This document shows, in pieces, positions 40,464-60,528 of a stretch of DNA of 60,528 bases. The stretch is from Pseudomonadota bacterium. GTDB lineage: Bacteria; Pseudomonadota; Gammaproteobacteria; Pseudomonadales; Halieaceae. The stretch is from the NCBI GenBank assembly GCA_039024595.1, contig JBCCQO010000001.1, positions 1-60,528 of the forward strand, written 5' to 3'. The position numbers were made by a program, and so were the translations under genes. How positions within the stretch are numbered: position 1 is the first letter of the stretch; each line of letters starts with the position of its first letter. Under the pieces are notes generated by a model. The model was not told where the DNA came from and did not search any database. It saw nothing but the letters and a program-made list of their open reading frames with translations.

Positions 40464-41348
40464 ATGAACCATGAAAACTCCGCGGCACCCAGCTCCGAAG
40501 ACTGGGCCCAGGAGCGGGGTAGGAAGTGGGCTGAACATTTGCAGCCAACAGAGGCAATGCTGGCGCCGGTCGATCTACCTCTGGTCGCAGCGCTGAAATT
40601 GGATGGTTCACACTCCGTTGCTGACATTGGCTGCGGCGGTGGGTTCACCACGCGCTCCATTGCGCAGTCCATGCCCGCAAATGCGGTAGTACATGGCTAC
40701 GACATCTCACCTGAACTTATCGCTCTCGCAGAATCGGTGGCTGACGATAAGAGGCTTCGGTTTTTCTGTGAAGACACGCAAACAGCAACGCCTTATTCAG
40801 AAGGACAGGCCGAGGGTGATGCTAGGGGTATTGCAGGAGGCTACGATCGGCTGAGTTCGCGATTTGGGGTTATGTTCTTCCCAGATCCATTTCAGGCTTT
40901 CCGTAACCTGCATCAGTGGTTGCGGCCTGGCGGCCGTTTCGCTTTCGCTGTTTGGGGGCCACCGCCGGAAAATCCGTGGATGATGGTACTGCGTCGGGCG
41001 GTGGCGGACGTTGTTGATCTGCCATCTCCTGAACCTGATGCTCCAGGCCCGTTTCGCTACGAGAACGGAGAGAGTTTTGTGCGCCTGCTCAGCGAGTGCG
41101 GATTCGGTAGCGTAGAGTTTGACCGTTGGCAGCAGGACCTTGCTCTCGGTGGGGGACTCTCCGCCGGTGACGCGGCCCGTTTTGCCCTTTCCGCCTTTGG
41201 AATCGGTGAACAGGTAGCGCACGATCCTGATCTGGCAGCCAGAGCTTTCGACCAACTTTCGACAGCGCTTGCTCCCTACGAGCAGGAAGGCCGCGTGCTG
41301 ATGCAGGGAACCGTTAACATTGTCACTGGTGAGCGACAGGCTCCCTAA
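40464..41348 (+). CDS. Class I SAM-dependent methyltransferase
   Basis: DIGCGGG, DIS, SRFGVMFF.DP, LRPGGR, PGPF. Confidence 0.9.
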   Translation: MNHENSAAPSSEDWAQERGRKWAEHLQPTEAMLAPVDLPLVAALKLDGSHSVADIGCGGGFTTRSIAQSMPANAVVHGYDISPELIALAESVADDKRLRFFCEDTQTATPYSEGQAEGDARGIAGGYDRLSSRFGVMFFPDPFQAFRNLHQWLRPGGRFAFAVWGPPPENPWMMVLRRAVADVVDLPSPEPDAPGPFRYENGESFVRLLSECGFGSVEFDRWQQDLALGGGLSAGDAARFALSAFGIGEQVAHDPDLAARAFDQLSTALAPYEQEGRVLMQGTVNIVTGERQAP

Positions 41349-54671: not shown

Positions 54672-55838
54672 CTAACGCTTGGGCAGAGTCTTGCGGCCCT
54701 CTTTCTCGCCATATTGTATGAAGTGGACCAGAGGATTCATCCCGGCTTCCATAACGTCGGGGTAGCTAAGAAGATAAAACAGAGTGTCGAACTTGGTGCT
54801 GGGATTTCTTCCTTCAATTGCGCCGAACTTTAAGTAGTGCTCTTCCGAACTTACGCCTGAATTTCTGACATCGGGGTACTTCAATAAGTACCAATCTGAG
54901 TCGAAGTGCTTCGACGACTCAAGCAACACGACCTGCTCATTGATCCGGCGCTGTTGATCTCTATCGCTACGTTTCGCTAGTAACCGCGAAGGGTTCTCGG
55001 GGAAAGACAGTAAGACCCGTCTCGCCCAACACATTAGCGGCTGTAACTCCGAAGAAGACGGCACCGTGGCGCCATTTTTCTGATTACTCGGAAGTCTCTT
55101 GTGGAGCGCTGGTGCGACGCGAGATCGCTGCTGCTCAATGTGCGCGAGTTCGAACTCTGCCTGCAACTGGTTGAGTTGAATCTGTAGAAGCTCATTATGT
55201 GCCAGCACGTTACTTAGCTCGCCCTCATCAATCGGGCCTTGAGGCTGTGCTTCGCGATTGGTGTCCTGCACCACTCGGCTGGCCATTCTGGAATGGGAGT
55301 CGATTGCACGCCGCCACACAGGTACTCCAGTATGTGCCTCTCGAACACCATGCATTTCCTGTAGCTCTTCTGCGAGTGCTTTTACGTCATCAAACTCATT
55401 TATCAGAACCTGAGCTGCTAACTCATAGACCGGTTCGATACGTAGCGAATCCGTTGCGGATACCAATCGTGACACCGTATTCCCGTTCATTATTAGCTCC
55501 ATGTCCTTATCGGCGCCGCTATCGAGAACGTAGAGTGCGTTTGCGACCTCCGACCGAGTCGGATGTCGACGAAGAAAGCTGAGGATACTCTCGGTCTCTG
55601 CAAGCCAGTTCAACCGCCATTCGTCCACCGCGTGCCCGTGGGCAAGGTCCAGCGCGAGTGAGACTTCCGGCGCTAGGTAAACGACCAGGAAGTACGAATC
55701 CGGCTCTGATCTCGCACGGTCAAACAAGGTGGTGTCGGGAGGCGGAGCCATGACCAGAGAGGAAACCCCCCTGGGCATTGAATCATTCGTCTGAACTACG
55801 GCGGCAGCGGAGTTTGCAATTGACAGTACGGTTGTCAC
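54672..55838 (-). CDS. Glycan-locus protein with coiled coil and two FDxxWY/YPDV/HY..G..EGR repeats
   Basis: FDSDWYLLKYPDV...HYLKFGAIEGRNPS; FDTLFYLLSYPDV...HFIQYGEKEGR. Confidence 0.75.
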   Translation of the reverse strand: MTTVLSIANSAAAVVQTNDSMPRGVSSLVMAPPPDTTLFDRARSEPDSYFLVVYLAPEVSLALDLAHGHAVDEWRLNWLAETESILSFLRRHPTRSEVANALYVLDSGADKDMELIMNGNTVSRLVSATDSLRIEPVYELAAQVLINEFDDVKALAEELQEMHGVREAHTGVPVWRRAIDSHSRMASRVVQDTNREAQPQGPIDEGELSNVLAHNELLQIQLNQLQAEFELAHIEQQRSRVAPALHKRLPSNQKNGATVPSSSELQPLMCWARRVLLSFPENPSRLLAKRSDRDQQRRINEQVVLLESSKHFDSDWYLLKYPDVRNSGVSSEEHYLKFGAIEGRNPSTKFDTLFYLLSYPDVMEAGMNPLVHFIQYGEKEGRKTLPKR

Positions 55839-56025: not shown

Positions 56026-56065
56026 CTAGGGAGCCTCTGAACAAGGCCACGCAGAGACCCCCTGG
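56026..56065. mobile_element. Miniature IS5-like end remnant (CTAG-GGAGCCTCTGAACAA...GCAGAGACCCC-CTGG)
   Basis: YTAR target followed by a GGA...CTGAACAA end resembling IS5-subgroup IRs; imperfect inverted partner at 56051-56061; 16 bp identical to 60388-60403. Confidence 0.45.
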
Positions 56066-57118: not shown

Positions 57119-57664
57119 TCAGGCGATCCCAGCGCTGCGCCCTTCGGCCAGACCGTAGCGCAAAAAGTGCGTTAGGGGATTTAACCCACTCAGAACTACG
57201 TCTGGATATCGCACCAGATAGCCTAACGTGCTGAAGTTCCTTGAGGGGTCCTTGCCTTCGACCGCCCCGTACCTGAGATAGTGCTCCGCGGGCGTGATCC
57301 TCAGCTCGCCCACCTGCGGATAGGAATCGACATACCAACCCGAGTCAAACCATGAACTTCTGTTGAACTCACCTACTGTTCTGGCGATTTCCTTTGCTGA
57401 GATTGTCTCGCTGCGAAGAAACTGAGAGATACCGTCTGAGCGGGACGGTATGTACGCGCTTTCTCGCCAGGCCAGAAAGCGCTGTAGCAGATCGACTGAT
57501 TCATCGTTGCTAAAGAGAAAGTGTCTTTGGGAAATCTCCTCGCGGAGTAGGGATACTTTTCGATAGGCGTGCTCGAGTTCGTTCTGCAGCTGGGATATTC
57601 GAGCGGAGCAGATATCGAGTTCTAGCTCCAACTGATCGGAAGGTGTCTTGTCATCCATTAACAC
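57119..57664 (-). CDS. Short paralog with coiled coil and two FDxxWY repeats
   Basis: QLQNELE; FDSGWYVDSYP.V..HYLRYGAVEGKDPS; YLVRYPDV..GLNPL.HFLRYG..EGR. Confidence 0.75.
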   Translation of the reverse strand: MLMDDKTPSDQLELELDICSARISQLQNELEHAYRKVSLLREEISQRHFLFSNDESVDLLQRFLAWRESAYIPSRSDGISQFLRSETISAKEIARTVGEFNRSSWFDSGWYVDSYPQVGELRITPAEHYLRYGAVEGKDPSRNFSTLGYLVRYPDVVLSGLNPLTHFLRYGLAEGRSAGIA

Positions 57665-58080: not shown

Positions 58081-59454
58081 ATGAACAACCAAACCATATG
58101 TGACAGCATCACCTGTGCCTATGCTATGGCGGGCGACGGTGATTACGCTGAAACCGATGGTCTGCTTCCGCGCCTGGTTTCCGCTCCGCTGTTCGCATAC
58201 CTGCGGACCTCCTCCATTGAGAAGGAAGAGTCGAATTCCGCGCCTCGATACGCAGCGACCATAAACTGTCACCGGATTGAGTGGCGAGAATTCCTTGCTC
58301 GTAAAGAAGAGCTGCAGGTGCTCGCCGATGCCTGGGAGGCAGCAACTCGCGCCCTGAGTGAAGGGAAACCTCCCTGGGCGAAAGACGACATACCCGATCA
58401 GAAGTCTAGAACCTTAGATCAGACGACCAGGGCTTTAAGTGTTCTGATGAATGAAGAGCTGAGCGGTTCGATGCTAGTGATAGATTCCGGGCCGTTGGTT
58501 TTCCGATGGGCGGCTTTGCCAATCGGTGCCGCACGTTTCGATATTGTCGTGGTAACGGCACTTTATCCCGACGGCGATTTGATGCCTGGAGCAGCGGACG
58601 ATACCCCGATCATTGAAACTCACCAACCCCAGAGCTTGCTGGCCGTTACCGCCGATATGGAAGCGGCCAGAGTGGCCCGTCATTTGAGTGGTGTGCCCTC
58701 TGTGTCTCTGCCGTCGGTGTTAAACCTGGCGAAGACGCGAACTGAGAATGCGCCTCACTTAACGATAGTTATTCCCACACTGGGTGAGACAGGCCTTGCT
58801 GAGACTCTACAAAGCATCGCAAACCAACAGCGGCACAGCTCTGTTGAGGTTCTCATCCTACACTCCAGTCGGCATTGCGCAGACGCGCAATTAGAGCGAT
58901 GGAAGCAGTACCAATCGCCCGGCCTCAGCATAGTTGAGATGGCGATAGCAGATCGGAGTCCCTACGAGGCGATGAATGCCGGGCTCACGCTGGCATCTTC
59001 GACCTGGATCTACTTTATGGGATGTGGGGATACGCTTACTGGCCCCGAGGTTCTTGCAACGCTCCAGGCCGCGTTCGAGGAGTGTGAGCCAGACTGTGGA
59101 ATGATCTATGGCAGCGTCCGAATGAAGGGCGACGGGCCAGGTGCGCAAGATGGCGAAATCTACGCGGGCGAATTTACCTACGATCGATTGCGGGAGCAGA
59201 ATATTTGTCACCAGGCGATAGTTTATCGACTCAGCACCCTGCGACGGCAGGGGGGATTTGACGGGCGCTATCCAGTTAACGCTGATTGGGCGGTTAATCT
59301 GAGAGGCTGGGAAGGGCTAAAACCCAGGTATATCGACCTCGTACTTGCCAACTTCGTTCGCGGTGGGCTCAGCAGTACGCAATGGGATACCGAGTTCTTT
59401 AATGATCTGGACAGGCTGTGGACGGAGAATCGTCCCCAGCCGATTGCGGAGTGA
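58081..59454 (+). CDS. GT2 (WcaE-like) with an unknown N-terminal region of about 220 aa
   Basis: TIVIPT, D...YEAMN.G, F.G.GD, YG.V, ICHQA, ADW, GG.S. Confidence 0.8.
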   Translation: MNNQTICDSITCAYAMAGDGDYAETDGLLPRLVSAPLFAYLRTSSIEKEESNSAPRYAATINCHRIEWREFLARKEELQVLADAWEAATRALSEGKPPWAKDDIPDQKSRTLDQTTRALSVLMNEELSGSMLVIDSGPLVFRWAALPIGAARFDIVVVTALYPDGDLMPGAADDTPIIETHQPQSLLAVTADMEAARVARHLSGVPSVSLPSVLNLAKTRTENAPHLTIVIPTLGETGLAETLQSIANQQRHSSVEVLILHSSRHCADAQLERWKQYQSPGLSIVEMAIADRSPYEAMNAGLTLASSTWIYFMGCGDTLTGPEVLATLQAAFEECEPDCGMIYGSVRMKGDGPGAQDGEIYAGEFTYDRLREQNICHQAIVYRLSTLRRQGGFDGRYPVNADWAVNLRGWEGLKPRYIDLVLANFVRGGLSSTQWDTEFFNDLDRLWTENRPQPIAE

Positions 59455-60392
59455 ATACGCATCTGGCCGCGGAAGATATGGGTGCAAACACCCGGCATTG
59501 GGTCGTAGTAATTCTCAATTGGAACGGTGCTGAAAAAACACTGGCCTGCATACGTTCCGTCGATGCCGCAGCCGAGAAGTGTAGCGACATCGCCCTGTCG
59601 GGCATCGTCGTAGATAACGGTTCCACACCCAACTCACTCAGCGCTGTGCGTACCGATGTAAATGAGCGCAGAAACTGGCGCCTCCTGTCACTCGAGCAGA
59701 ATTACGGCTTCTCCAGAGGCATGAACGTGGGGATTGAAGCTGCAGGTCAAATGGGTGCCTCCCACGTGTTGTTGCTCAATAACGACACCGAACTGGACGT
59801 TAATGCAATCGCGGCTCTTGCGGATGCCCAGGGCCGTCAGCGCGAGTCGATCCTGGGCCTAGCCGTGGAAACGAGTACTCTCCGTGGTCGCAGGGTTATC
59901 GCAGGATACCGCTATCTATCTTGGTTCGGTATGGCATACGCGGTTCCCCTTAAAGACGAACTCGCGGATAAACACGCGAAAGCGCCACCACGGATAGACT
60001 ACGTTTGTGGATCGGCAATGCTGTGCGACGTAGCGTTTCTAAAAAAGGTCGGAGGTATCCCGGAAAATTCGTTTCTCTACTTTGAAGAACTCAGGCTTGC
60101 CCGTGCTTTATCGCCGACGGAAAAACCCATCTGTTGCCCCACTGCGAAGGTCAACCATTCCTCCGGAGCGAGTGCCGTAGACCTCTCGAGTCCCTCAAGG
60201 CACTACTACGCTGCATATGCCTGTTACCGCTATACGCTGGACTATGGCCCGATGAAGTTGCCGACTGTTGTATTTGCCCGGGTGCTACGACTGACGTACG
60301 CGTCTGTTGTGACCCGTAGCCTGACGCCCGTTACAGAAGGAATACAAGCGCTGTTTGATTGTTTCTCTGAGGGCGAGCGGAGAACAGGCTAG
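59418..60392 (+). CDS. Glycosyltransferase family 2 (rhamnosyltransferase-like)
   Basis: VILNWN, VDNGS, N.GF..G.N, LLNND, YV.G, FLYFEE, V.H..G.S. Confidence 0.88.
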   Translation: MDGESSPADCGVNTHLAAEDMGANTRHWVVVILNWNGAEKTLACIRSVDAAAEKCSDIALSGIVVDNGSTPNSLSAVRTDVNERRNWRLLSLEQNYGFSRGMNVGIEAAGQMGASHVLLLNNDTELDVNAIAALADAQGRQRESILGLAVETSTLRGRRVIAGYRYLSWFGMAYAVPLKDELADKHAKAPPRIDYVCGSAMLCDVAFLKKVGGIPENSFLYFEELRLARALSPTEKPICCPTAKVNHSSGASAVDLSSPSRHYYAAYACYRYTLDYGPMKLPTVVFARVLRLTYASVVTRSLTPVTEGIQALFDCFSEGERRTG

Positions 60393-60403
60393 GGAGCCTC
60401 TGA

Positions 60404-60528
60404 GTGCGCCGAGCAAAGCTCAGGTGCAGGGGAAGTTGTACCGACAAGGATGTCATAACGATGGAAACTGTGCAGTGGTTTCCCGTGGGTGCAAGTCCCA
60501 CCCGGGCAAGGCTGGTCCCCACCCGGAA
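60404..60528 (+). mobile_element. 5' end of a group II intron (domain I), truncated by the window end
   Basis: Begins with the GTGCG 5' splice consensus, then a GCGCC-GAGC-AAA-GCTC-A-GGTGC stem and a CCCGTGGG-TGCAAGT-CCCACCCGGG GNRA-type hairpin typical of bacterial group II domain I. It interrupts a sequence that is continuous at 56030-56044. Confidence 0.78.

Follow-up and report, generated by a model that had tools for sequence, protein, structure and literature searches.

The stretch of DNA analysed here (the window; positions 1–60528, 60,528 nt) is the whole of contig C1 of G000, a 75%-complete MAG. Its last open reading frame (ORF) encodes a family-2 glycosyltransferase (GT2), the TAG stop codon of which lies inside a CTAG tetramer at 60389–60392; this is followed by GGAGCCTCTGA and, directly after the latter, by GTGCG at 60404–60408, with the contig ending at 60528 (Table 1). 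The order of CTAG with the GT2 stop codon, repeat and GTGCG had already been described in a sequence-only reading of this DNA, and its coordinates (60389–60408) are confirmed. The 11 nt at 60393–60403 are the left arm of a palindromic MITE of 58 bp, the remaining 47 bp of which are found on contig C57 of the sister genome G002. The predicted IBS2 spans the final two bases of the target-site duplication together with the start of the repeat. Located 4.4 kb upstream of the intron junction, the copy at 56030–56061 is an empty target.

Table 1. Features at the 3′ end of the window and an intron-free member of the repeat family
Feature	Position	Strand	Remarks
Family-2 glycosyltransferase (GT2) ORF	59418–60392	+	324 aa from first GTG; PF00535, E 1.9e-9
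Left target-site duplication (YTAG) of the MITE, reading CTAG	60389–60392	+	right copy TTAG on G002:C57, 3/4 identical
GGAGCCTCTGA, outer 11 nt of the IS5-type terminal inverted repeat = intron 5′ exon	60393–60403	+	
Predicted IBS1 (CTCTGA)	60398–60403	+	by comparison with 11 full-length relatives
Predicted IBS2 (exon −13 to −9)	60391–60395	+	by comparison with relatives
Group II intron, first 125 nt (start of domain I), class E-like	60404–60528	+	ends with contig
Intron-free 32-bp member of the repeat family (56030–56061)	56026–56065	+	flanks CTAG and CTGG

A sister motif beginning TAGGGAGCCTGTCG is present at window positions 41278–41347 on the minus strand, and a motif of the same type is also contained in a loose end from run X2 at 60399, which represents an intron-free allele after GT2; these occurrences are hinting at a second, decayed repeat family at the same YTAG sites. 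The runs X1–X4 come from one study, with X1 being possibly the source of the window DNA.

That positions 60404–60528 constitute the start of a group II intron is secure. At the Rfam gathering thresholds, no match was obtained in the whole window, and a truncated group-II-D1D4-4 match at 60483–60528 scores 23 bits (E 0.0026 in a local scan), i.e., below the gathering score of 49. The copy in G002, which is 48 nt longer, reaches 56.1 bits with group-II-D1D4-6 (RF02005; gathering score 49, E 2.7e-13). The 125-nt intron start folds modestly better than shuffled versions of it (z −2.1, with 6 of 200 shuffles being equally good). Aligned with eight full-length introns, it shows a mean column identity of 68%, and in the alignment of these with the longer G002 copy two-sided changes occur in 20 of the 38 consensus pairs. 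The domain-I-like stems that had been noticed in the letters alone are, thus, borne out by the Rfam score of the G002 copy, the alignment and the covariation. Domain V/VI (RF00029), with 41.3 bits at a cut-off of 40, was detected at five 3′ ends in G002, all finishing with CCCGAC, and a sixth, shorter 3′ end of the same G002 intron type was recovered by DNA search; in G000, no intron 3′ end with domain V/VI was found. The prediction that domain V/VI would follow downstream has, hence, come true at the G002 3′ ends, which C57 links to the window.

Runs X1 and X4 contain contigs that begin at the junction and measure 1990 and 1994 nt; in X1, the depth of this contig is 57.8 versus 9.7 on the flank, i.e., about six times higher, a ratio that describes depth and not copy number. 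The whole intron is estimated at about 1.95–1.98 kb, and a contig of about 1.99 kb gives room for a reverse transcriptase (RT) ORF; the 11 full-length relatives (ten domain V loci and one copy on a Halomonas plasmid) are 1943–2061 nt long. The assembled portion of the RT comprises 21 C-terminal codons ending just before domain V, and a search for RVT_1 in G002 gave no match. The intron body was not found in G000 and G002, and neither body nor EBS region was found in the viral contigs, the metagenome contigs and the genome scans; a search of plasmids returned distant relatives only, and none of the 45 genome loci from a domain V scan is this intron. An RT on contig C112 of G000 was rejected as that of the intron, given its 134 bits versus a group II cut-off of 300. 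This gene (L001:1-1413, minus strand) encodes a non-intron RT of at least 471 aa, is cut by the contig start and lies beside a tRNA-like gene; scoring under all NCBIfam cut-offs, it is possibly a defence-type RT.

For the classification of the intron, pRmeGR4b provides two references, namely an intron with a frameshifted RT and an intact 419-codon ltrA, which are taken, by exclusion from PMC5894124, as the class E intron S.me.I4 and as RmInt1, respectively. With the frameshifted-RT intron, the intron 5′ end shares 73% identity across 96 nt, and domain V shares 77% across 44 nt; both intron ends match this intron and not the intact ltrA. Among the relatives, 12 of 12 RTs score higher against the frameshifted RT of pRmeGR4b than against the intact ltrA. 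The class D C-terminal motif LX3AX3PXLF[V/A]HW (PMC4615759) is absent from the 21 C-terminal residues. By these comparisons, in which the RTs are those of relatives, the intron appears class E-like, being nearer to the class E than to the class D reference.

Besides G000, the intron start was found only in G002 among 60 genomes searched, where a 23-nt match in G012 was treated as chance, and it is confined to G000 and G002 among 305 family genomes. Five 5′ junctions are present in G002, on contigs C63, C39, C22, C49 and C11; a mirrored second match on C11 was merged, so that this contig counts as one junction. At all five, the intron start is 97–100% identical to that of the window and is preceded by the same 13 exon bases, each time after unrelated DNA, with the tetramers CTAG (three times), TTAG and CAAG. 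The C11 contig end (L149; G002:C11:132561-132781) folds back across the intron 5′ junction, which is likely an assembly artefact.

According to their 3′ ends, two intron types can be distinguished in G002. One type has six ends, of which five resume with sequence resembling ACAAGTCC—which is what succeeds GGAGCCTCTGA in intron-free copies—and one reads ACTTG, corresponding to the mirror arm; the 3′ exon on C49 agrees with the repeat for five bases only. The rest of the inverted repeat, which had been expected after the intron, is seen at six G002 3′ ends, clearly at five and partly at one. A second intron of G002 (L010–L013; on C13, C15, C26 and C66) was rejected as the 3′ partner, its four 3′ exons being unrelated to the repeat; its RT C-terminus is presumably class C-like. 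Six 5′ junctions (the window and five in G002), thus, face six G002 3′ ends, and the link between 5′ and 3′ ends rests on C57, on this six-to-six count and on the shared Rfam family, with no assembled sequence spanning both ends. The host elements vary, comprising the 58-bp element, a longer MITE like the 263-bp one, and truncated arms. Different host elements at the copies point to separate homing events and not to transposition of one composite.

The other side of the focal insertion is provided by C57 of G002, which begins with domain V/VI, followed by the 47 bp completing the 58-bp palindrome and, then, by TTAG. A second CTAG had been predicted to close the element; a YTAG is indeed present at this position, the tetramer being TTAG and not CTAG, so the focal duplication is imperfect (CTAG/TTAG). 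The C57 flank agrees by eye with the intron-free X2 loose end after the GT2 stop codon at 24 of 30 letters, including an exact run of 14; a search with the X2 loose end allowing three mismatches gave no match, the C57 stretch differing at four letters. A repeat motif of the first C57 ORF recurs in two proteins of the window (E about 1e-6). Judged from the translations, the opposite strand of C57 appears to carry glycosyltransferases and an ABC exporter, i.e., the same kind of polysaccharide genes. Three polysaccharide-cluster proteins (window positions 54672–55838 and 57119–57664; L139:235-1203) have a common short repeated motif. C57 continues the window; the 58-bp MITE that the intron interrupts is located between two convergent polysaccharide-cluster genes. 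In addition, GT2 contigs from X1 and X3 extend to 60417 and thereby cover the first 14 nt of the intron; this overlap of 14 letters between the GT2 contig and the intron contig is below the 31 required by the tool.

The presence of the window in G000 is itself in question, C1 being probably a G002-type contig mis-binned into G000, as argued from its composition, from its genes being duplicated in G000 and missing from G002, and from the continuation on C57. The tetranucleotide profile of C1 lies at a distance of 0.0044 from the G002 loci versus 0.0087 from the rest of G000. A homologue elsewhere in G000, often in the same order, exists for 17 of the 31 window proteins tested, with eight of these homologues showing at least 60% identity over half the length. 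The region is syntenic in G001 and G003 and is missing from the 98%-complete G002; within G000, the repeat occurs on C1 only. Furthermore, the junction loose ends in X1 correspond to the G002 flanks and have a depth like that of GT2 (9.7–11.5).

The repeat is a true IS5-family terminal repeat. Two complete IS5 elements bounded by it were obtained from the metagenome scan, namely L283 (1191 bp, TTAG/TTAG) and L278 (1170 bp, CTAG/CTAG), whose transposases reach 348 and 339 bits, respectively, on NF033581 at a cut-off of 140; the IS5-like terminal inverted repeat postulated in the sequence-only reading is, thus, substantiated by complete elements carrying it with YTAG duplications. A 4-bp YTAR target duplication is typical of the IS5 subgroup. 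Exact YTAR duplications occur at L283, L278 and five G002 elements (L045, L114, L121, L125 and L182), three of four letters match at the focal site and at L039, and 38 of the 52 G002 ends examined follow YTAR.

Counts of the 11-mer versus a reversed control were 56 versus 2 in G002, 18 versus 0 in G131 and 4 versus 0 in G160, and the 21-nt form of the repeat was found in 3 of 305 family genomes. These dozens of copies (56 in G002) agree with the earlier claim of many target sites, and, together with the intron-free copy at 56030–56061, the counts show that the exon sequence is no coincidence. The G002 elements with paired arms are 28–263 bp long and contain no ORF, and the focal host, with 58 non-coding bp, is no autonomous IS5 element. 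The sequence-only reading had proposed that the intron disables the end of its host element; any such effect would here fall on non-coding MITEs or half-elements and might immobilise a MITE. A metagenome scan for the repeat yielded at least 121 loci from 10 of 64 parts, from which about 830 are estimated overall. Of the 133 repeat ends at these 121 loci, eight are near IS5-like transposase sequence, within at most 2.5 kb, many loci being shorter than that; GTGCG follows none of the 133. The L283 transposase gave no match in G002, G131 and G160, where multi-copy elements can drop out of such assemblies, and three DDE_Tnp_1 loci of G002 were dismissed as the partner, as they are without the repeat. 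No viral contig carries the repeat, and the 263-bp MITE has no real match among plasmids. Another IS5-family element with a CTAG duplication is present in G000, G003 and G017 (L153:150-1465 on G000:C245; L154 and L158); it was rejected as the source of the target, its repeat being similar and not equal to the target of the intron.

Taken together, a class E-like intron very probably interrupts an IS5-type repeat between its bases 11 and 12 at six junctions, where it is likely to have arrived via repeated retrohoming into YTAR-flanked MITEs and half-elements. The assembled intron sequence stops at base 173, and EBS1 of the relatives lies at bases 216–235. In these relatives, EBS1 pairs with the last six exon bases at six of six positions in nine of 11 cases and at five of six in the other two, and EBS2 pairs at four to five of five positions at −13 to −9 in nine of 11. 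Reasoning from these 11 full-length relatives, the target is likely found by RNA–DNA base pairing.

In the mechanism that we propose, read-through from GT2 would transcribe the intron, which lies in the same sense as the gene, and the intron would splice with its own RT/maturase. The pairing partners of a predicted EBS1 (UCAGAG) and a predicted EBS2 (UCCCU) would be the repeat plus the final two bases of the YTAG duplication; a predicted EBS3 U would pair with the first base of the 3′ exon, A or G (IBS3). The intron, which would be devoid of an endonuclease, could then insert by reverse splicing into DNA that is single-stranded at replication forks, as shown for the class D intron RmInt2 (PMC4615759). 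With its palindromic build, the repeat would present target sites in either strand, and the protein would be left intact by an insertion directly after its stop codon. The dinucleotide AG at −13/−12 is present at six of six junctions versus 34 of 57 motif copies (hypergeometric p 0.037, a post hoc comparison in which the 57 include a few chance matches), and two of the six junctions lie at the stop codon of a long ORF.

Alternatively, the intron might read the hairpin shape of a REP-like palindrome, as class C introns do with terminators, the IS5 ancestry being incidental. Many copies are indeed perfect or near-perfect palindromes of 28–76 bp, and the focal copy is located between convergent stop codons. 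However, the insertion lies within the first arm instead of following the hairpin, and some hosts consist of a single arm for which no mate was found within 400 nt. Moreover, exon pairing in the relatives involves an EBS1 of 6 nt and an EBS2 of 5 nt, and the intron groups with the class E reference, apart from the class C-like G002 intron; we, therefore, regard recognition of shape as improbable. Very improbable is a single entry into one MITE, followed by copying of the intron-bearing MITE by an IS5 transposase. It would account for the identity of all six 5′ exons over 13 nt and for the five of six junctions that start in a YTAG tetramer, and it is in line with the repeat being a true IS5 end, but the six 3′ exons differ from the first base on (A or G) and the hosts are of different build; moreover, the intron splits the very repeat needed by the transposase, one junction follows CAAG, and the IS5-type transposase was not found in G002. 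That the junction was created by chimeric assembly at the end of the contig, as might be suspected from the contig stopping 140 nt into multi-copy sequence, the apparent mis-binning of C1 and the fold-back of the C11 end, is scarcely credible, since the independently assembled contigs of X1 and X3 continue into the intron for 14 nt, as far as 60417, and the corresponding other side is present on C57.

The sequence-only reading had made its case dependent on the 5′ exons of homologous introns; these share the same 13 nt at the five G002 junctions, whereas among the 11 full-length distant relatives none has an exon ending with CTCTGA. The target is, thus, specific to this intron and not to its subfamily, and, considering also that GTGCG follows none of the metagenome repeat ends, the case rests on one organism. 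The relative on the Halomonas plasmid (L052:2900-4960, NZ_CP040453.1) is inserted in repeated IS21 end sequence just behind istB, with EBS1 pairing at six of six and EBS2 at five of five positions. The first ten bases of the 3′ exon are common to five of 11 ends in the MAG SCS4bin.42 (L062–L098) and to six of nine in the MAG Vin_7 (L065–L096), suggesting that the introns of these two may home into other short repeat families. Among the ORFs beside the 3′ ends of the relatives (68 of 78 listed were scanned), only two are transposon genes, both at the Halomonas locus. A general rule that the relatives sit in IS elements was discarded, since the neighbours outside the Halomonas locus are not transposon genes.

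From the IS5 ends here, the IS21 end in Halomonas and the repeated 3′ exons in two MAGs, we tentatively derive a further reading, which we consider possible though rather doubtful: the lineage would repeatedly re-programme its exon-binding loops to abundant transposon-derived repeats, and the present member would read the target-site duplication, taking only YTAG-flanked ends, which are often stop codons. If true, this would be a parasite using the footprint of another parasite to land right behind expressed genes. Independent of this reading, about 50 empty and six filled copies of one short repeat offer a natural test of target choice, and the intron accounts for six contig breaks and probably for one binning error.

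The strategy itself is known. RmInt2 uses the inverted repeats of ISRm17 as homing sites, and the same rationale has been published for it (PMC4615759; PMC5894124; PMC8496243); its homing has been shown experimentally. In passages of PMC4853749, PMC7923331 and PMC8919778, no closer case than RmInt2/ISRm17 was found, and the openly accessible literature searched gave no paper on a class E intron in IS5-type MITE ends. The novelty lies in a class E-like intron being combined with IS5-type MITE ends and in the hint that the duplication is read; no new mechanism is opened, the intron being an example from a second class of a habit proven for one class D intron. Considering the class E-like case along with the class D intron RmInt2, targeting of transposon end-repeats arose more than once.

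In comparison with known systems, the intron resembles RmInt2 in being multi-copy (seven copies there, six junctions here), in having a non-coding IS terminal repeat as its target with sites on both strands, and in having A as the first 3′ exon base in most copies. In contrast, RmInt2 belongs to class D and is found within insertion sequence copies, whereas the present intron is class E-like, its hosts being MITEs and half-elements of an IS5-type repeat that contain no transposase; homing is experimental there and inferred here. The target distinguishes the intron from the class E reference of pRmeGR4b, and the ten other full-length relatives have other exons as well. With class C introns behind terminator or attC hairpins (PMC8919778; PMC7923331), it has in common a harmless, abundant and mostly intergenic target by gene ends, but class C introns use a hairpin and a short IBS1, whereas here the insertion is inside a repeat arm and relatives use full EBS1 and EBS2. 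The host elements, finally, conform to the IS5 family (NF033581) and its MITEs in the 16-nt repeat at one end with a variant at the other, in the YTAG duplication and in the autonomous forms of 1.17–1.19 kb, yet differ in that G002 shows short non-coding forms only (28–263 bp where both arms were found), without a partner transposase.
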